IMG/VR virus record: IMGVR_UViG_3300047335_000010
Span: 1 to 42,792 of that record
DNA: 42,792 bases
Strand: one strand, 5' to 3'
From: a virus
The notes beneath the pieces are model-generated. The model was given only the letters and a program-made list of their open reading frames with translations, did not search any database and was not told where the DNA came from. Positions 26,526 to 41,074 of the stretch are shown piece by piece. Positions within the stretch are counted from its first letter, which is position 1. Each line of letters begins with the position of its first letter. The translations under genes and the position numbers were made by a program.

Positions 26526-27158
26526 GTGATTATATCCCTACTTCAAGAAAAGGGCGGTAGCGGCAAGACGACGATCTCGATTAATCTCGCGAAAGCGTTT
26601 CAATCACTCGGCTATACGGTATTACTCGTCGATTCCGATCCGCAGGGCTCAACGCGCGATTGGCATACGAATAATAATGGCAATACCCTCGATGTGATTG
26701 GCCTTGACCGACCAACGATCGATAAAGATATAAAACGGTTTACCCGCCAGTATGATTATATTTTTATTGATGGCGCGCCGCATTTATCCGTCATGGTCAC
26801 GAAGACTATTATTATATCTGACGTCGTGCTCGTCCCGGTTCAGCCGTCGCCGTACGATGTGTGGGCGAGCGCCTCGCTCGTCTCGCTCATTAAGCAGCGC
26901 CAAGAGATAACGGATGGCAAGCCCAAAGCCGCGTTCGTTATTAGCCGCAAGATCGTCGGGACGAATATCGGGCGAGAAGTTAATACCGCCTTGATTGAGT
27001 ACGGCTTGCCGATCGTCTCGGGCGGTACGTGCCAACGCGTGAGTTATGCGGAGACGGCCGCAAAGGGCTTGACCGTTTTATCGAGTGACGATAATTCGGC
27101 CAAGAGCGAAATGAGCATACTAGCCGCGAATGTATTGGAGTTTTCTAAAAATGATTAA
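26526..27158 (+). CDS. parA: ParA/Soj-family partition ATPase (small, type Ib-like)
   Basis: Deviant Walker A in MIISLLQEKGGSGKTTISINLA, then LLVDSDPQGS and IFIDGAP. 210 aa with no N-terminal HTH. GTG start. Confidence 0.85.
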   Translation: MIISLLQEKGGSGKTTISINLAKAFQSLGYTVLLVDSDPQGSTRDWHTNNNGNTLDVIGLDRPTIDKDIKRFTRQYDYIFIDGAPHLSVMVTKTIIISDVVLVPVQPSPYDVWASASLVSLIKQRQEITDGKPKAAFVISRKIVGTNIGREVNTALIEYGLPIVSGGTCQRVSYAETAAKGLTVLSSDDNSAKSEMSILAANVLEFSKND

Positions 27159-27336
27159 AGCTAAAAAAGATACGTCACGGGTCGCAAAGCTTCAAAAGCA
27201 AATGTTATCGCCCAAGAAAAATTTAAACGTCGAGATCGACGCGGCGCTATTCAAACGATTTAAAGCGAAGGTCGCCGCGAACGGTGAGACCATGACGGAA
27301 ATTCTCACCGGGGCGATACTGGACTATTTAGCGTGA
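27151..27336 (+). CDS. Ribbon-helix-helix partner protein (ParG/CopG-like centromere-binding candidate)
   Basis: 61 aa with a basic N-terminal tail, then NLNVEIDAALFKRFKAKVAANGETMTEILTGAILDYL (beta strand, helix, helix pattern). ATG at 27151 overlaps the parA stop. Confidence 0.55.
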   Translation: MIKAKKDTSRVAKLQKQMLSPKKNLNVEIDAALFKRFKAKVAANGETMTEILTGAILDYLA

Positions 27337-30193: not shown

Positions 30194-30224
30194 AGACTAC
30201 CGGGTATTGCTAATAACGTCAATA
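30194..30224 (-). promoter_or_regulatory. Promoter-operator element copy C (TTGACG-17-TAGTCT with dyad TATTG-N10-CAATA)
   Basis: The minus strand reads agTATTGACGTTATTAGCAATAcccggTAGTCT. It is homologous to the elements at 31766..31796 and 34451..34482. Confidence 0.5.
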
Positions 30225-31564: not shown

Positions 31565-31729
31565 TTAGATTACCCACGCTTGATTAAGGAAAGACCAAGA
31601 CACGGGAAGTAACGAATCAATATCGTCGTCAGTGCATTCCTTGTTCCGTAGGTCGATCAACCAGCCTTCGCCTATTTGAACTTTCCCAGTCACTTGATTT
31701 CTATAAAATTTATTTTCTTGTAATAGCAT
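31565..31729 (-). CDS. Possible 54-aa protein (not in ORF track)
   Basis: MLLQENKFYRNQVTGKVQIGEGWLIDLRNKECTDDDIDSLLPVSWSFLNQAWVI. GGGG lies 8 nt upstream, and it is the first ORF after promoter-operator copy B. Confidence 0.35.
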   Translation of the reverse strand: MLLQENKFYRNQVTGKVQIGEGWLIDLRNKECTDDDIDSLLPVSWSFLNQAWVI

Positions 31730-31765
31730 TTCTTTTTCCCCACAGTTATTTAAGTTAACGAGGCT

Positions 31766-31796
31766 AGGTTACCCCATATTGACACTAATGTCAATA
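31766..31796 (-). promoter_or_regulatory. Promoter-operator element copy B (TTGACA-17-TAACCT; palindrome TATTGACA-CTAA-TGTCAATA)
   Basis: The plus strand has atATTGACACTAATGTCAATAac at 31776-31798. The minus strand has -35 TTGACA (31794-31789) and -10 TAACCT (31771-31766). Confidence 0.55.
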
Positions 31797-31798
31797 AC

Positions 31799-31990: not shown

Positions 31991-33099
31991 TTATCAAAAA
32001 CCTTCCGCGCCTGTTTTTCGTCGACGGCGGTGAGCTTTAACGCGCCGCGCTGGCGTTCGCAGTAAACTTCGACCAAGGCTTCGTCTATGCCCGCGACGAT
32101 CGCTTGCCGCGGCGTGAGTGCGACGTCCGGCTTCTTAAGGTCGTACCCGAGTAATTCCCCCATTTTTAAGACTTCCCCGACCGGTACGCCCCACGCCAAG
32201 CGGCCGGGCGCGGATTCGAGCGCGAAGAACGGCACGCGGTCGCCCCGACGGATCATGGCGGTCGCTTGTTCTTCGAGCCCCGCGATGCGGGCTTCAAGTA
32301 ACGCCCGGGCGCGTTGCAAGTAACGAAGCTCACCCCCAAGTTGAAATGAGTCGAGCTCAATCGGAATGTTATCGTAGGACGCGTCGGCGGCCACAAGGGC
32401 GGATTGCCGCAGGGTCGGGCAGGCGTGACGGGCGGCACAGTAGTTGCATTCAGGACTAACGCGGGTCGTGGCGATCTCTTGCACGGCTTCCGCTTCGACT
32501 TGCCGAAGGATATCAAAATATATTTCGAGGGTAACAAGCGACGATTTCCATGTGCGGACATTACCGGACGGATGATAAGAGCGGGGCTGGACAATGTGAA
32601 ATACGACGTCGAGGTCATTTGCCGTCAATCCCAGCGGTAACCCGTCGAGAATACCGGCCGCGTATTCGATTAATTGCCAGTTTTCGAAGACTTCGACATA
32701 ACCATGACCGAATTTATAATCGAAAATATGAAGCTCATTTTCTTTCACAAACCAGCAATCGGGCGTCCCGAAACAATCCGGGTGAATGGTCGAGATATCG
32801 ACACGTTCCTCGATGTGTAAAACTGCGCCGCCCCTCACGGCTTCAATTGAATTTTCGTATAGGATGGCACCTTCGATCATTTCGTCGGTAATCGGCTCGC
32901 CATTGGGGGCAACGTGGGGAAACGAATCCATACAATGGACTTGATTAAAACGCCACGCGGCCAGCCAATGCGCCGCCTCGCCTTCACGCGCAGCGGGCGA
33001 TTGTTCGGCAGATTTATATTTTTCCTCAAGCGCGCGGGAACCGGGACAAGCGACCCGGCGCGCAGCCGATGAGGGCGGTAATTTTGAATGTTCGGTCAT
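31987..33099 (-). CDS. PD-(D/E)XK nuclease (DUF2800 / Cas4-RecB-like) with C-terminal Cys cluster
   Basis: The N-terminus HSKLPPSSAARRVACPGS is typical of DUF2800. Core residues appear in IFDYKFGHG, and the C-terminus has a Cys cluster CNYCAARHAC. Confidence 0.7.
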   Translation of the reverse strand: MTEHSKLPPSSAARRVACPGSRALEEKYKSAEQSPAAREGEAAHWLAAWRFNQVHCMDSFPHVAPNGEPITDEMIEGAILYENSIEAVRGGAVLHIEERVDISTIHPDCFGTPDCWFVKENELHIFDYKFGHGYVEVFENWQLIEYAAGILDGLPLGLTANDLDVVFHIVQPRSYHPSGNVRTWKSSLVTLEIYFDILRQVEAEAVQEIATTRVSPECNYCAARHACPTLRQSALVAADASYDNIPIELDSFQLGGELRYLQRARALLEARIAGLEEQATAMIRRGDRVPFFALESAPGRLAWGVPVGEVLKMGELLGYDLKKPDVALTPRQAIVAGIDEALVEVYCERQRGALKLTAVDEKQARKVFDK

Positions 33100-33320
33100 T
33101 TCGGTGCCTCCGGTAATGGTTGCCAGTGAGTTATTTCCCAGTACCCGTCATCGATTAATATTTTTTCCCCGAATGCGTCTTGAAAATAATTGTCTCGCCA
33201 GTCATATACACCGACGCTATAAATTTTTCTTTGATGCGACCAAGAAGCGACTATGTAAGTTCGGAATCCTTCGGGTTGTCTATCTGGAAGTCGATCTTTT
33301 ATATTTATCCAGTCGGTCAT
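33096..33320 (-). CDS. DUF551 protein
   Basis: WINIKDRLP...ITHWQPLPEAP. Confidence 0.7.
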   Translation of the reverse strand: MTDWINIKDRLPDRQPEGFRTYIVASWSHQRKIYSVGVYDWRDNYFQDAFGEKILIDDGYWEITHWQPLPEAPK

Positions 33321-33532
33321 ATAGGAAACTCCGGTAAATATTGCCAGTGAGTTATTTCATGAGGAATATCCGAAAAATAAAAAATAATATCGTCCCATTC
33401 CGTGTATTCACCATTTAAAAAACTGAACGTGGACATAACGACCATATCTTTTTTATCTTGGCAGACAACATGTACAAGAACTTTTTCGCCTACCGGCGGA
33501 TGTTGTTTTTTAATATCGATCCAATTACTCAT
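33317..33532 (-). CDS. DUF551 protein (tandem paralogue)
   Basis: WIDIKKQHPP...ITHWQYLPEFP. Confidence 0.7.
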   Translation of the reverse strand: MSNWIDIKKQHPPVGEKVLVHVVCQDKKDMVVMSTFSFLNGEYTEWDDIIFYFSDIPHEITHWQYLPEFPI

Positions 33533-34419
33533 ACGCTCGTCCCCGCCATATACGTATCGATAAATTCCGAGACGCCCGCGAACAGATCGGGACGGCAGGG
33601 CAGTACTGCAAGGGACGGCATCCCGACGGATTCGACCGCCCGAACGACCGTTTCTTGCGTGATTTTCCCTTGCTGGACGAGCCCGGTTATTTTTTTCATA
33701 AGGGACGGCCAGTCGAGCTCAGGCGCATCGGATTTAAACCCCGCGAATTCGCCACCTTTAACTGGCGCACTTGGCGCACTTGGCGCACTTGGCGCACTTG
33801 GCGCACTTGGCGCACTTGGCGCACTTGGCGCACTTGGCGCACTTGGCGCACTTGGCGCATCGGTCGAGGCGCGTAATTGCTGCGAGATTTCGTCGACTTT
33901 TCGCAAGTCTATCCCGCGCTGGACTTTCCACGTCCCGTCCGCATTCTTACTCTTGGTGCGCGTGTGTATACGGGCGTCCCACGGTAGCCCTGCCGTATCG
34001 AGGTCAACGCCGGTTTTAATCGGACGCGGAACAAGGTCGGGATCAACTGTGAACGGATTGAACGCAGCGTCCGGTAGCCCGGGCGCAGGCGGGGGCGTCA
34101 GGTCGCGGAGCGGTTCGACCGGGGCGGGCATTTTATACGAGGGGACAGGTTTATCGCCTTCGGGTATTAACTCGTTACAACCGTCCGTACTGACGGGTTT
34201 CTCGGAATTAGCTGGGCTAGTTCCGACCGGGGCGGCCATTAACTCGTTGCGCGGAACGATCCCGAGTAGGTAATCGTCGGTATTATCTTTTTTAGCAGCC
34301 GTGAGCGGAACGGGGGCGGGACGTACTTCAGCGCCCGCAATTTTCATCAATAGCGTTGCGACATCGATCAATAGTTGCCTTGGCGCAAGGTGCGGGTCGG
34401 TGATTTCAATTTTAATCAT
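33529..34419 (-). CDS. Pro-rich hypothetical protein with (APS)10 linker; first gene of leftward operon
   Basis: SD GGAGA upstream of the ATG at 34419, and ATGA coupling to the next gene. Contains a GLPWDARIH motif and a perfect APS repeat. Confidence 0.6.
   Translation of the reverse strand: MIKIEITDPHLAPRQLLIDVATLLMKIAGAEVRPAPVPLTAAKKDNTDDYLLGIVPRNELMAAPVGTSPANSEKPVSTDGCNELIPEGDKPVPSYKMPAPVEPLRDLTPPPAPGLPDAAFNPFTVDPDLVPRPIKTGVDLDTAGLPWDARIHTRTKSKNADGTWKVQRGIDLRKVDEISQQLRASTDAPSAPSAPSAPSAPSAPSAPSAPSAPSAPSAPVKGGEFAGFKSDAPELDWPSLMKKITGLVQQGKITQETVVRAVESVGMPSLAVLPCRPDLFAGVSEFIDTYMAGTSV
33764..33860. repeat. Perfect 9-bp tandem repeat GGCGCACTT x10 plus a partial unit, in frame within a CDS
   Basis: Read directly: ten identical units at 33764-33853, then GGCGCAT. 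Confidence 0.95.
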
Positions 34420-34437
34420 TTTCGTTTCTCCAATATT

Positions 34438-34482
34438 TTGACAGTCTCCGAGAGTACCTGTATATTGCTAAAAATGTCAATA
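34438..34482. promoter_or_regulatory. Divergent face-to-face promoter pair with operator copy A
   Basis: Plus strand: TTGACA (34438-43), 17 nt, TATATT (34461-66). Minus strand: TTGACA (34480-75), 18 nt, TACTCT (34456-51). The dyad TATTG-N10-CAATA lies at 34463-34482. Confidence 0.6.
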
Positions 34483-36102
34483 CTGAGACCGTACCAACAA
34501 AAAGCTATCGACGAGCTATATGCCGCGTGGGACGCTGGCGCGCGGAATGTTTGCGTGCAACTCGCAACCGGGGCGGGCAAGACCGTCATATTCTCCCATG
34601 TGATCGCGGACGAACCGGAGATATCCGTCGCCATTGCTCACCGGGTCGAGCTCGTTAGCCAGATATCCTTAACGCTCGCACGGCACGGCGTCCGGCATAA
34701 TATTATCGCGCCGACCGCTGCGATCCGTTCGATCGTCGCCTTACACATGCAGGAGCTCGGTCGGGCGTTTTACGATGGCCATGCGCGGCGGCACGTCGCG
34801 GGCGTTGATACGCTCGTCAAGATGCGCGAGCCGTGGTTCACGCAGGTCGCGCTCGTCGTGCAAGATGAAGGGCATCACCCCCTACGTGAAAATAAATGGG
34901 GTAAAGCGGCCGCATTGTTCCCCAACGCGCGCGGGCTATATCCGACCGCAACGCCTTGCCGGGCGGACGGTAAAGGGCTCGGGCGCAACGCTGACGGCAT
35001 AATTGATAAGCTTATCGTTGGTGTAGGGATGCGGGAGTTAATCCGTGAGGGGTATTTAACGGATTATCGAATATTCGCACCCCCAAGCGATCTCGACCTA
35101 TCGGCCGTTCCAGTGACGGCTACAGGAGACTACAGCCCCCCGAAGCTACGGAACGCGATACATAAGTCACATATCACGGGGGATGTTGTCTCGCATTATA
35201 TGCGGATCGCGCCGGGCAAACTCGGCGTCACGTTCGCGGTCGATATCGAATCCGCGACCGCTATCGCAACGGAATTTAAAGCGGCGGGGGTGAGCGCGGA
35301 AGTCATTAGCAGCAAGACGCCGGACGCATTACGCGCGGCGATCATGCAACGCTTTAAGCGCCGTGAGATCATGCAGCTTGTCAACGTCGACCTGTTAGGG
35401 GAAGGGTTCGATTGTCCGGCGATTGAGGTTGTAAGCTTTGCGAGACCAACCCAGAGTTTTTCCCTGTATAGCCAGCAATTCGGAAGATCGCTCCGACCAT
35501 TAGAGGGTAAAGAACATGCTATTATCATTGACCACGTTAATAATGTTATTCGTCACGGGTTACCTGATCGGCCGCGCGTATGGTCTCTTGAGAGACGGGA
35601 GCGCAAAGCGCGTTCGGCTCCTGACGATGCTATTCCTTTGCGCGTCTGTCTTAACCCTAGCTGTATGGCAGTATATCCCCGAACCCGGCGAGGGTGCCCC
35701 GTTTGCGGTCATGTCAACATTCCTGTAGCACGGTCGACACCTGAGCAAGTGGATGGCGACCTTCTCGAACTCGACCCGGACGTGCTCGCGCAAATGCGGG
35801 GCGAGATCGAACGCGTGGATGGTGCGCCGCGTGTCCCACAGCATTTAGATGCGATAGCACAAAAAGCCGTCATCAATCGGCATAAAGCCCGACAACAAGC
35901 GCAATCCGAATTACGGCAAATCATCGCCCTATGGGCAGGCTATCGCCGTCACGCGGGGTTATCAGATAGCGAAATATATCGAGAGTTTTATTTTACGTTC
36001 GACATTGACGTCATGGGCGCGCAGGCGCTCAAGGCCAATGACGCGGATAATTTATGGGATAAAATTCAGCAAGTTATTGACGGATTTAGCAATATGAAAT
36101 AG
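34474..36102 (+). CDS. SF2 DEAD/DEAH-box DNA helicase with C-terminal zinc ribbon
   Basis: N-terminal LRPYQQKAIDEL, motif I QLATGAGKT, motif II VVQDEGHH and Zn ribbon CLNPSC...CPVCGH. I prefer the ATG at 34474 (MSILRPYQ) over the ORF-track start at 34375, which would overlap the divergent gene. Confidence 0.85.
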   Translation: MSILRPYQQKAIDELYAAWDAGARNVCVQLATGAGKTVIFSHVIADEPEISVAIAHRVELVSQISLTLARHGVRHNIIAPTAAIRSIVALHMQELGRAFYDGHARRHVAGVDTLVKMREPWFTQVALVVQDEGHHPLRENKWGKAAALFPNARGLYPTATPCRADGKGLGRNADGIIDKLIVGVGMRELIREGYLTDYRIFAPPSDLDLSAVPVTATGDYSPPKLRNAIHKSHITGDVVSHYMRIAPGKLGVTFAVDIESATAIATEFKAAGVSAEVISSKTPDALRAAIMQRFKRREIMQLVNVDLLGEGFDCPAIEVVSFARPTQSFSLYSQQFGRSLRPLEGKEHAIIIDHVNNVIRHGLPDRPRVWSLERRERKARSAPDDAIPLRVCLNPSCMAVYPRTRRGCPVCGHVNIPVARSTPEQVDGDLLELDPDVLAQMRGEIERVDGAPRVPQHLDAIAQKAVINRHKARQQAQSELRQIIALWAGYRRHAGLSDSEIYREFYFTFDIDVMGAQALKANDADNLWDKIQQVIDGFSNMK

Positions 36103-36128
36103 CCTTATGCTAACATGGAGGGCATTGC

Positions 36129-36599
36129 ATGAAGCTAAATGAGTGGGCGGCGCGTTGGAACATATCGTCGTGGGCGCTCGATGACTTGCGTACGATCTTT
36201 GGTATCGCGGGATGCGAGTCGCGCGAATCGGGACAGTCGGAATCGGCGATACAATCCGAAATCCGGCTCGAAGCTGTGACCGTCGGGGCGCGTCTTTGGC
36301 GCAATAACGTCGGCGCGACCTATGCCCGGGACGGTTCGTTTCTACGGTATGGACTTGCGAACGAATCCGGGGCGGTTAACGCCCGGGTGAAATCGGCCGA
36401 CCTTATCGGCATACGACCGGTCAAGATCGAACCCGGTCACGTCGGCTGGACGATCGGCCAGTTTGTCAGCCGGGAAGTGAAAGCGGGCGGCTGGCAATAC
36501 CGGGCGACCGATCGAGAGCAAGCCCAATTAAGATGGGCAGAGCTTATAATGAGTTTAGGGGGTGACGCGGTATTTGCGACGGGCAAGGGGACACTATGA
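36129..36599 (+). CDS. VRR-NUC domain nuclease
   Basis: SESAIQSEIRLE...WRNNVG...SADLIGIRP...FVSREVKAGG...QAQLRWAELIMSLGGDAVF fits the VRR-NUC / PD-(D/E)XK pattern. RBS GGAGGG. Confidence 0.65.
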   Translation: MKLNEWAARWNISSWALDDLRTIFGIAGCESRESGQSESAIQSEIRLEAVTVGARLWRNNVGATYARDGSFLRYGLANESGAVNARVKSADLIGIRPVKIEPGHVGWTIGQFVSREVKAGGWQYRATDREQAQLRWAELIMSLGGDAVFATGKGTL

Positions 36600-36783: not shown

Positions 36784-37098
36784 ATGTCAAGAGCAAAACG
36801 AACGAGGCCTGCCGTCAGGCGCGAACAGCTAATCGACGCGGCTATAAAAATAAGTAAAGAAATAGGGTACAATAAGCTTACACGCGATAAAGTCATGAAA
36901 GAAGTCGGCATAACCGTCTCTCTTTTAAGCTATTATTTTCCTCGCATGTCAGACTTAAAAAACGCTGTTATGGATGCGGCGGTCGAACGTGGAATTGTCG
37001 AAGTTATTGCACAGGGAATCACTTTAAACGATCCGCGCGCACTCACGATCAATCCGCAAACCAAACTACAGGTAATCGCATTTATGATGCAAACTTGA
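36784..37098 (+). CDS. Short TetR-family-like HTH DNA-binding protein
   Basis: REQLIDAAIKISKEIGYNKLTRDKVMKEVGITVSLLSYYFPRMSDLKNAVM matches the TetR_N pattern. At 104 aa it lacks most of the usual ligand-binding domain. Confidence 0.6.
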   Translation: MSRAKRTRPAVRREQLIDAAIKISKEIGYNKLTRDKVMKEVGITVSLLSYYFPRMSDLKNAVMDAAVERGIVEVIAQGITLNDPRALTINPQTKLQVIAFMMQT

Positions 37099-39913: not shown

Positions 39914-40020
39914 GGTCTCCCCTCACAATTGCCGCGGAGTATAGCAATAACCGTAATTTGCGGTATACTAAATCCGTAACTTCCTAGTGACACAATCCTC
40001 GCGTTAATCCCTGTCAATGA

Positions 40021-40353
40021 GCCGGTATCGAAATATACCGGCCTCATACCGGCTCGCCTATACCGGCCTTAACTTAACTCATTGATTCTATTAAACTTTT
40101 TATTAACACGGCCGGTATGGCCGGTATAAAATGAAATCGCTCCAGCCGACTCCACCGGTACCCTCCGGCATACTGTAGGTCACGGCCTATACTTCCCGTT
40201 TACTCCCCATTCCACCGACTTCTATTTATACCGGCCATACCGGCCACACCCTTTATATTAATAATAAAATATTCTTATTAATTAATTATTTAATTAAATA
40301 AAAGGGGACGGCCGGTATAGCATGGCCGGTATACGGCCGGTACAGGCCGGTAT
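40021..40353. repeat. Iteron field: 12 copies of (GG)CCGGTA(T/C) in both orientations (putative replication origin)
   Basis: Plus orientation at 40022, 40112, 40121, 40312, 40326, 40337 and 40347. Minus orientation at 40035, 40046, 40060, 40228 and 40237. A 13th copy lies at 40582. There is an 18-bp perfect inverted repeat at 40110-27 / 40228-45 and a palindrome GCCGGTAT-N6-ATACCGGC at 40021-42. Confidence 0.75.
40252..40304. other. AT-only stretch (putative DNA unwinding element)
   Basis: About 53 bp containing a single C (40274), flanked on both sides by iteron clusters. Confidence 0.6.
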
Positions 40354-40460
40354 CCATGTGATTGTAAATAAAACGGGCAGATTACGAAAAATGATCCGGC
40401 TTTGTACGACGAACTAAGGGAATAGTTGGGGGATTGCGCTTCGTTTGCACAACGAAACGT

Positions 40461-40575
40461 CCGTTTTCGTCCGTTCGGCGACCGTTTTCGTCCGTTCGGC
40501 GACCGTTTTCGTCCGTTCGGCGACCGTTTTCGTCCGTTCGGCGACCGTTTTCGTCCGTTCGTCGGCCGTTCGGCG
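40461..40575. repeat. 21-bp tandem repeat CCGTTTTCGTCCGTTCGGCGA, 4 perfect + 1 degenerate units
   Basis: Units start at 40461, 40482, 40503, 40524 and 40545. CCGTT recurs every 10-11 bp. The overlapping ORFs encode only repeat peptides. Confidence 0.9.
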
Positions 40576-40648
40576 AGCCGGATACCGGCAACGTGACCGG
40601 AACGACGGAGTGTGATACCGTAATAATATTTAAGGAAGTAATACAAAC

Positions 40649-41074
40649 ATGGCAGAAAAGAAGAAAAAAAAGACAGTAAAGAAATATGTAAAAAAATACG
40701 TCACGTCTTATAAAATGATCGAAGAGTGCCGCGTTTTGGCTGGGCACGGATTGACGACGGATCAACTCGCCTATTATTTTAAGTTAAAACCGATCACGCT
40801 TCATAGAATGATCGCACGCGATCCGGTATTGAAGGAAGCGATCAAGAACGGCAAATCGGTCGTCATTGCAGAGATAGCCGGGCTACTTGTGCAAAAAGCA
40901 CGTGAAGGCAATGTATCGGCTATGGTATTTTATTTGAAGACTCAAGCACGTTGGAACGAGTTTAATAATTCAGATAATCCCCCTCCCGACAAGCCAAAAA
41001 TAAGTTATAGTATAACGACGACCGACCCGGTTGAGGCCGCGCGTATTTATCAGCAAATCATGACAGGGAGCTAG
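40649..41074 (+). CDS. terS: Terminase small subunit-like DNA-binding protein
   Basis: Lys-rich N-terminus, HTH-like LTTDQLAYYFKLKPITLHRMIARD and the motif REGNVSAMVFYLKTQARWNEF seen in small terminases. RBS AAGGAAG. Confidence 0.55.
   Translation: MAEKKKKKTVKKYVKKYVTSYKMIEECRVLAGHGLTTDQLAYYFKLKPITLHRMIARDPVLKEAIKNGKSVVIAEIAGLLVQKAREGNVSAMVFYLKTQARWNEFNNSDNPPPDKPKISYSITTTDPVEAARIYQQIMTGS

Follow-up and report, generated by a model that had tools for sequence, protein, structure and literature searches.

Overlapping divergent promoters, a recurrent candidate operator and a putatively leaderless helicase message between the replication operons of a dwarf myovirus

The stretch analysed here (IMG/VR record IMGVR_UViG_3300047335_000010, positions 1 to 42,792; hereafter, the window) is the essentially complete genome, ∼43 kb in length, of a dwarf myovirus that is kin to Shewanella phage SppYZU01, Edwardsiella phage MSW-3, Pectobacterium phage PEAT2 and the Klebsiella jedunaviruses, and it carries structural genes for portal, capsid, sheath and baseplate. 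Two divergent DNA-replication operons start from a gap of 54 base pairs (bp; 34420-34473), the size given in a preliminary description of this DNA. The gap is bounded on one side by the start of the leftward operon (34419; CAT on the plus strand at 34417-34419) and on the other by the ATG of a helicase gene (34474-34476). The leftward operon encodes a PD-(D/E)XK nuclease, a Gp2.5-like single-stranded-DNA-binding protein and a DNA polymerase. Its first gene (33529-34419, minus strand) specifies a 296-amino-acid protein whose N-terminal sequence is kept in relatives and which has tblastn matches in 59 loci. The rightward operon includes genes for the helicase, an endonuclease, a TetR-like protein and a primase-helicase. 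Its first gene (34474-36102, plus strand) encodes a 542-amino-acid SF2 helicase (Pfam ResIII, Helicase_C and DEAD) and is identical to a gene-caller product, P0001, with the same start.

In a protein search, the helicase was 52-56% identical to those of SppYZU01, MSW-3, PEAT2 and the Klebsiella jedunaviruses. No phage DNA close to 33400-36200 was found among sequenced phages using megablast, and comparison was therefore made via proteins. The protein search yielded hundreds of metagenomic relatives with helicases 60-80% identical, and the DNA of ∼100 related loci was used; the promoter layout described below is shared by ∼43 distinct relatives with helicases 54-80% identical. Two loci (L099 and L100), with ∼97% identity to the window in this part and no difference in the intergenic DNA, indicate that the region is stable and are otherwise uninformative. 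The region upstream differs and is rearranged in an 80% relative (L101), which was left out, and the closest informative relative is L102, whose helicase is 79% identical. An Rfam scan of 33900-35000 gave a single sub-threshold chance match, and no discussion of promoter motifs in jedunaviruses or their named relatives was found in the literature library searched.

Two perfect TTGACA boxes lie in inverted orientation at the gap, as previously described, one on the plus strand (34438-34443) and one on the minus strand (34475-34480, TGTCAA on the plus strand). The first is the −35 hexamer of a predicted rightward promoter, P_R, followed after a spacer of 17 nucleotides (nt) by the −10 hexamer TATATT (34461-34466, plus strand), with 11 of 12 consensus positions matched. 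A −35 element near TTGACA, a spacer within 16-18 nt and a TAnnnT −10 element, the features sought in a σ70-type promoter, are thus all found in P_R. Only three sites in the window match at 11/12 or better, against 0.67 expected from shuffled sequences, and P_R alone among them is both intergenic and directed into a gene. An extended −10 element was considered for P_R and rejected, the TG directly touching the hexamer so that the required one-base gap is missing. The second TTGACA is the −35 hexamer of the predicted leftward promoter, P_L, followed after 18 nt by the −10 hexamer TACTCT (minus strand; reverse complement of 34451-34456). By σ70 geometry, P_R would start at the seventh to eighth base past its −10 hexamer (34473-34474, plus strand), 34474 being the A of the helicase ATG, and P_L at 34443-34445 (minus strand), giving a leader of ∼25 nt. 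The 296-amino-acid gene has the Shine-Dalgarno sequence GGAGA (34427-34431, minus strand) 7 nt before its ATG, with a pairing energy of −6.4 kcal/mol. On the plus strand, from the leftward CAT to the helicase ATG, the letters are CAT tttcgtt TCTCC aatatt TTGACA gtctccg AGAGTA cctg TATATT gctaaaa ATG, and the coordinates given in the preliminary description proved correct.

Comparison with relatives constitutes much stronger evidence for promoters than a consensus match alone. In ∼43 distinct relatives the arrangement TTGACA-17-TATAnT-8-nGTCAA recurs together with an interposed TAnnnT that faces leftward, and the plan there reads: leftward gene, Shine-Dalgarno sequence, TTGACA, 16-18 nt, TATAnT, ∼8 nt and nGTCAAyA. 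These relatives retain the position of the P_R −35 hexamer, and its −10 hexamer is kept as taTA.T. When the alignment is anchored on the right-hand box, information is high on both −35 elements, on the P_R −10 element and on the leftward TAnnnT (AnnnTA on the plus strand), which stands at the position equivalent to the P_L −10 element, while the spacers carry almost none; GTCAA, within the P_L −35 element, has the top information content of the aligned region. Conservation of both layout and information content argues that both promoters are under selection.

The predicted start of each promoter (about 34473/34474 for P_R, about 34444 for P_L) lies directly next to the −35 box of the other, in agreement with the preliminary description. 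The latter's term "face-to-face" does not fit, as transcription is predicted to proceed outwards from starts separated by ∼29 bp, leaving no complementary overlap between the 5′ ends of the transcripts. Since the predicted transcripts diverge without overlap and the two promoters share core DNA (34438-34480), P_R and P_L belong to the overlapping divergent class. Host σ70 RNA polymerase would be expected to use two fully overlapping promoters, P_R being near-consensus and P_L weaker, and because their core elements are interdigitated within 43 bp, presumably only one polymerase could be bound at a time. Symmetry-driven bidirectional promoters share or overlap their −10 elements and have divergent starts ∼18 bp apart. 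The phage region resembles these in its predicted divergent transcription from compact, quasi-symmetric DNA, but differs in that its −10 boxes are separate (4 bp apart), its predicted starts are ∼29 bp apart and each promoter has a consensus −35 element of its own.

The A of the helicase ATG at 34474 is the eighth base after TATATT and no Shine-Dalgarno sequence precedes it, both as previously noted. Anti-Shine-Dalgarno pairing upstream of the helicase amounts to −2.2 kcal/mol, compared with a median of −5.7 kcal/mol in the window, where 40 of the 58 genes reach −4 kcal/mol or better and the well-defined replication genes all reach −5.5 kcal/mol or better. Homologues of the helicase are ∼540 amino acids long and gene callers place their N-terminus at M-x-LRPYQ, which identifies ATG 34474 as the right start. 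The first three codons, ATG TCA ATA, overlap the P_L −35 box; as the TG of the ATG is supplied by this opposing element (TGTCAA), P_L and the first helicase codons share bases. Identical bases would thereby serve as the −35 element of one promoter, as the predicted transcription start of the other and as the first codons of a protein. Transcription from P_R would begin at the A of the ATG or at the base preceding it, and the resulting helicase message would have no leader or almost none and would be translated without the aid of a Shine-Dalgarno sequence. Two features looked for in a leaderless message are present: an AUG without upstream Shine-Dalgarno sequence, and an unstructured 5′ end, the first 30 nt of the predicted message forming only a 3-bp helix (z-score of 0.63 relative to shuffled sequences). 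Leaderless translation is favoured by AUG and by an accessible 5′ end (PMC8459731).

The relatives suggest how this arrangement may have arisen. Most of them have a leader of 10-25 nt after GTCAATA, containing AGGA or GGAG. In L102, a nearly identical promoter region is followed by a 17-nt leader and ATG GAA, the order being TATATTgctaaaaCTGTCAATA, gcgaccggataagacga, ATGGAA and TTGCGACCA, while in the window TATATTgctaaaaATGTCAATA is directly followed by CTGAGACCG. The window thus differs from L102 by a 23-nt deletion and a C-to-A change, the latter creating the ATG. Judged from this alignment, the leaderless state appears to be derived, through deletion of an ancestral leader of ∼17 nt. Three other relatives (L027, L045 and L083) carry ATGTCAAyA in frame, 6-8 nt beyond the −10 box. 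They are scattered in a neighbour-joining tree (drawn without bootstrap), with sister sequences that do have leaders, and in two of them (L045 and L083) the reading frame is interrupted by a stop 18-27 nt upstream, with no alternative start codon.

A leadered helicase message is the alternative that holds up best, and we nevertheless consider it fairly unlikely. Transcription would then begin at an unrecognised upstream promoter or a few bases earlier at P_R, and translation would start either at ATG 34474, independently of a Shine-Dalgarno sequence on an A-rich leader, or at TTG 34465, served by GAGAG (34450-34454) as a weak Shine-Dalgarno sequence. This TTG is indeed in frame, GAGAG lies 10 nt upstream of it with a pairing energy of −3.4 kcal/mol, and the A run before the ATG allows starts at 34470-34473. 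Use of the TTG would, however, require a transcript that begins upstream of the P_R −10 element, and the promoter scan found no other rightward promoter-like site of at least 9/12 in 33460-34438. Nor is the TTG conserved, its counterpart in L102 being out of frame and running into a stop, and the homologues' N-termini (M-x-LRPYQ) speak against it as well. Finally, the ATG lies exactly 7-8 nt after the −10 element in four lineages, two of which lack an alternative start codon.

Leaderless messages are known from λ cI transcribed from P_RM, and also from Tn1721 tetR and P2 gene V. As with cI, the helicase transcript would begin at its AUG, which lies 7-8 nt past the −10 element and lacks a Shine-Dalgarno sequence, and the promoter is located in a divergent region with a predicted operator. 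Unlike cI, which encodes a repressor and is expressed from a weak, activator-dependent promoter, the gene in question encodes a replication helicase behind a strong, near-consensus promoter; its start codon overlaps the −35 element of the opposing promoter, and its leaderless state would be derived by leader deletion and occurs in only some members of the group.

The dyad TATTG-N10-CAATA, reported earlier for this region, is present (TATTG at 34463-34467, CAATA at 34478-34482) and overlaps the −10/+1 region of P_R and the −35 element of P_L. In full, the candidate operator reads TATTGCTAAAAATGTCAATA (34463-34482) and extends over parts of P_R (−10 element to about +9) and of P_L (about −37 to −18); its left arm includes the last four bases of the P_R −10 hexamer. 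The earlier idea of a shared operator holds in that a conserved dyad overlaps both promoters, but not in that the site is special, for it is one of four copies in the replication module. The perfect motif TATTG-N10-CAATA occurs four times in the window (at 30205, 31777, 34463 and 36075), while ∼0.05 copies would be expected by chance according to our own estimate; five-base arms alone are weak evidence, which this excess outweighs. With up to three mismatches allowed, TATTGAC-N6-GTCAATA has seven matches in the window against 1.72 expected, and none of 100 shuffled sequences reached seven.

Each of the four copies is part of a promoter unit directed along its downstream genes, and when oriented along these genes the units align over ∼30 nt with the consensus TATTGACr-N4-yGyCAATA-N5/6-TAnyCT. 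In all four, the −35 box lies in one arm and the other arm in the spacer. The unit at 30194-30224 (minus strand), with dyad TATTGCTAATAACGTCAATA, −35 TTGACG and −10 TAGTCT, is leftward and lies upstream of a small open reading frame (ORF) and the DNA polymerase gene; it aligns as TATTGACG TTATTAGCAATA cccgg TAGTCT. Also leftward is the unit at 31766-31796 (minus strand), which has the perfect dyad TATTGACACTAATGTCAATA, −35 TTGACA and −10 TAACCT, and aligns as TATTGACA TTAGTGTCAATA tgggg TAACCT. P_L itself aligns as TATTGACA TTTTTAGCAATA tacagg TACTCT. The remaining unit (36075-36105, plus strand), formed by TATTGACGGATTTAGCAATA and the −10 element TAGCCT, is located within the last helicase codons, is predicted to drive the gene at 36129, and aligns as TATTGACG GATTTAGCAATA tgaaa TAGCCT. 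Its stretch 36075-36094 encodes the last helicase codons I D G F S N, and the "ID" conserved across relatives near the helicase C-terminus is probably due to the −35 TTGAC embedded there and not to a requirement of the protein. In the 220 bp downstream of the perfect dyad promoter (31578-31798) there is no listed ORF of at least 60 amino acids; a short minus-strand ORF, preceded by the Shine-Dalgarno sequence GGGGA, appears to begin near 31712.

Nearly every relative, SppYZU01, MSW-3, Geezett and PEAT2 among them, has the fuller palindrome TATTGAC-N6-GTCAATA, usually upstream of the helicase gene, at its 3′ end and 2-3.5 kb into the left operon. The associated promoters point in consistent directions. 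A correctly spaced TAnnnT, for which the background rate is 4%, was found on the leftward side only for 31 dyads upstream of the helicase and on the rightward side only for none, and downstream of the helicase for 2 and 25 dyads, respectively; some further dyads had it on both sides or on neither. Among the central dyads, 22 had it leftward only and none rightward only, the leftward TAnnnT lying at 16-18 nt in 22 of 22. In the central region of the relatives, TGaC(g) after the P_R −10 element is kept as the mirror image of the right arm, although no promoter element demands these bases, whereas the six central bases vary. Such conserved twofold symmetry within a spacer argues for a dimeric binding protein. 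A palindrome over core promoter elements that recurs at promoters likely to be co-regulated is what would be expected of an operator, and from its sequence conservation the dyad is probably a functional cis-element and member of a small regulon. In one relative (L051, about 1537-1560), the rightward −35 box itself lies inside a TTGAC-N6-GTCAA palindrome (TTGACGGAGCCGTCAAT), and this central region may consequently carry two operators.

It could be argued that the dyad is no repressor operator at all and that its bases are kept merely as promoter parts (the −35 TTGAC with A/T-rich flanks), or as a signature read together with an activator that turns weak −10 elements on. The −35 TTGAC is indeed always in one arm, and the weak −10 elements of the form TAnyCT in all four units of the window could mean activator dependence. 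We regard this as unlikely, since the second arm falls in the spacer, where σ70 makes no sequence demand, and is nonetheless conserved as an inverted copy around six freely varying bases, twofold symmetry being characteristic of sites bound by dimeric proteins. Occupancy of −37 to −18 by a protein would, moreover, cover the −35 box, which favours repression, and the 17-18 nt spacers differ from the 19-20 nt typical of MerR-type activation; MerR-type spacer activation was rejected on this ground. Among other known sites, the FNR/FixK site (TTGA-N6-TCAA) was rejected for its spacing and the CRP site (TGTGA-N6-TCACA) for its arms, and the LexA box gave no match.

With the dyad taken as a candidate operator, three repressors had been put forward to bind it, of which only the protein encoded at 36784-37098 is conserved alongside the dyads; the other two fit less well. 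The ORF at 27130-27336 looks like a ParG-type/RHH partition protein and follows a ParA-like gene, and the HTH_17 gene was found in just two related loci. The favoured gene (36784-37098, plus strand, in the rightward operon) encodes a protein of 104 amino acids with a TetR-type DNA-binding domain and little else (Pfam TetR_N; score of 27.2 bits, cut-off 24). PDB sequence matches (down to E = 4e-5) pair it with the N-terminal ∼80 residues of TetR structures of ∼200 amino acids, and in a fold search ∼58 residues of its model align to TetR DNA-binding domains at ∼1 Å root-mean-square deviation, the TetR N-terminal helix-turn-helix thus being recognizable. As a word-indexed homologue search retrieved only two proteins, the structure was predicted from a single sequence, with moderate confidence (predicted local distance difference test [pLDDT] score of 72). 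The gene was detected in 57 related loci. Of 53 distinct relatives, 12, among them MSW-3 and PEAT2, have a dyad promoter 30-63 nt (in one case 117 nt) upstream of it, which is the usual sign of autoregulation; those with a distance of 30-63 nt include L020, L033, L049, L055, L081, L084, L002 (MSW-3) and L004 (PEAT2). We infer that this mini-TetR protein is the most likely binder of the dyad.

The E. coli TetR-family regulator RutR binds TTGACCAnnTGGTCAA, a 16-bp palindrome with TTGAC arms 6 bp apart (PMC2475637), and the phage dyad shares this TTGAC-N6-GTCAA geometry. The inner bases differ, being CG/CA in the phage and CCA in the RutR box, and RutR/YcdC (3loc) ranks only 43rd in the fold search with the phage protein and does not appear among the 60 best PDB sequence matches listed. 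By analogy, the resemblance offers a lead on site geometry and not evidence of membership.

A dimeric phage protein on the central dyad would block the −10/+1 region of P_R and the −35 element and spacer of P_L together, and would likewise block the three other dyad promoters. If the mini-TetR protein, made from the P_R operon, is that protein and represses, negative feedback and a timed shut-off of the replication genes would result. In Tn10, TetR controls the overlapping divergent promoters of tetA and tetR through two tet operators, and the regulator gene comes first in its operon. The phage region is similar in having two overlapping divergent promoters in a short intergenic region, a palindrome covering elements of both and, as the likely binder, a candidate with a TetR-family domain encoded in one of the controlled operons, which would amount to autoregulation. 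It differs in that the gap holds one dyad instead of two operators, that the operator marks at least three further promoters and that the regulator gene is fourth in its operon. The phage protein, furthermore, is a DNA-binding domain only, of 104 amino acids, and as it lacks a ligand-binding domain no small-molecule induction is expected.

Taken together, the region would combine overlapping divergent σ70 promoters, a repeated operator with the mini-TetR protein as its likely binder, and a helicase message made leaderless by leader deletion, a reading that we consider reasonably probable as a whole. Its promoter, operator and leaderless components each draw support from the comparison of sequences. 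All are known regulatory parts in a tidy arrangement, and no individual part is new.

Several observations weigh against this reading. σ70 rules were assumed for P_R and P_L. The P_L −10 box TACTCT matches TATAAT at only three of six positions (T1, A2 and T6), for which reason P_L was not listed by the promoter scan. In the run of five A residues at 34470-34474, a start at 34472 or 34473 is about as likely as one at 34474. One or two extra 5′ bases cut leaderless translation; in Caulobacter each base lowers it ∼2-fold, and in E. coli just one is reported to be inhibitory (PMC8459731). Because the A run permits starts 1-2 nt upstream and such bases are poorly tolerated, the exact 5′ end is the main uncertainty of the leaderless component. 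As to the operator, the left arm of the window's central dyad is degenerate (TATTGCT, not TATTGAC), and conservation of the dyad is partly explained by one arm being the −35 box. As to the binder, the TetR C-terminal ligand/dimerisation domain (helices 5-9; full length ∼200 amino acids) is missing, PDB matches reaching no further than about residue 86 of the phage protein (about residue 100 in the ∼200-amino-acid targets), and the C-terminal 27 residues (78-104) were modelled with a pLDDT below 50. No dyad lies directly upstream of its gene in the window, where the gene appears to depend on upstream promoters. Finally, covariation between recognition helix and half-site gave no signal either way among the relatives, both being conserved across them.

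If confirmed, the region would represent a compact, conserved regulatory design for a widespread and little-studied phage group that includes Klebsiella phages used in therapy, a design in which a minimal TetR-type regulator is combined with a set of operator-bearing promoters and a single strong early one. The relatives would also form a natural evolutionary series in which 10-25 nt leaders stand beside several apparently independent leaderless derivatives of one gene, and which could serve to examine the requirements of leaderless translation in bacteria that normally use Shine-Dalgarno sequences. More tentatively, one may suppose that across dwarf myoviruses, most of them uncultured, a TetR protein without ligand domain acts as a built-in timer, shutting all replication-module promoters through TTGAC-N6-GTCAA palindromes that also serve as −35 boxes, and that, with the opposing −35 element fixed at helicase +1, leader deletions have repeatedly yielded functional leaderless helicase messages, the translation of which might respond to host physiology differently from Shine-Dalgarno-led translation. 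This generalization is possible, if doubtful.

The preliminary description had seen the core genetic switch of the phage in this region. No integrase or CI-like repressor was found among the window ORFs scanned, neither a maintenance repressor with a lysogeny module nor alternative programmes could be recognized, and the gap holds a single operator without cooperative array. No integrated prophage copy was found in 185,579 species genomes, where just four phage-sized metagenome-assembled contigs matched. The related MSW-3 has been described as a lytic dwarf myovirus (PMC3587953). A λ-like bistable switch, in which a prophage repressor chooses between exclusive promoters, would suit the overlap of the promoters, their shared dyad and the ParA-like ATPase gene with its ParG/RHH-like neighbour, but is very improbable given these results, the replication functions of both operons (helicase and primase rightward; nuclease, single-stranded-DNA-binding protein and DNA polymerase leftward), neither of which is devoted to a repressor only, and the equivalent promoter/dyad layout and TetR-like gene of phages described as lytic, such as MSW-3.

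The ParA-like ATPase gene and the 68-amino-acid RHH/ParG-like ORF that follows it occupy 26526-27336. The best phage matches of the ATPase are plasmid prophages (VP882, phiHAP-1, MAR and VHML; 45-47% identity), jedunaviruses, MSW-3, PEAT2 and SppYZU01 being absent among the matches listed. The pair hints that the phage might persist as a plasmid, and a plasmid-prophage lifestyle is compatible with it.

Within the leftward operon, the 296-amino-acid protein contains ∼10 tandem Ala-Pro-Ser repeats (at about 33700-33800), encoded by a 9-nt tandem repeat, and two adjoining DUF551 genes for 74 and 71 amino acids (33096-33532) represent a tandem duplication. The HTH_17 gene, which is leftward, and the small terminase gene (40649-41074) are separated by ∼730 bp of non-coding DNA (39914-40648), dense in copies of GGCCGGTAT(A)/ATACCGGCC in both orientations and with a unit of ∼21 nt, gaccgttttcgtccgttcggc, in five tandem copies at about 40466-40560. 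This region could be an iteron replication origin, a partition site, a packaging site or a control region for late promoters.

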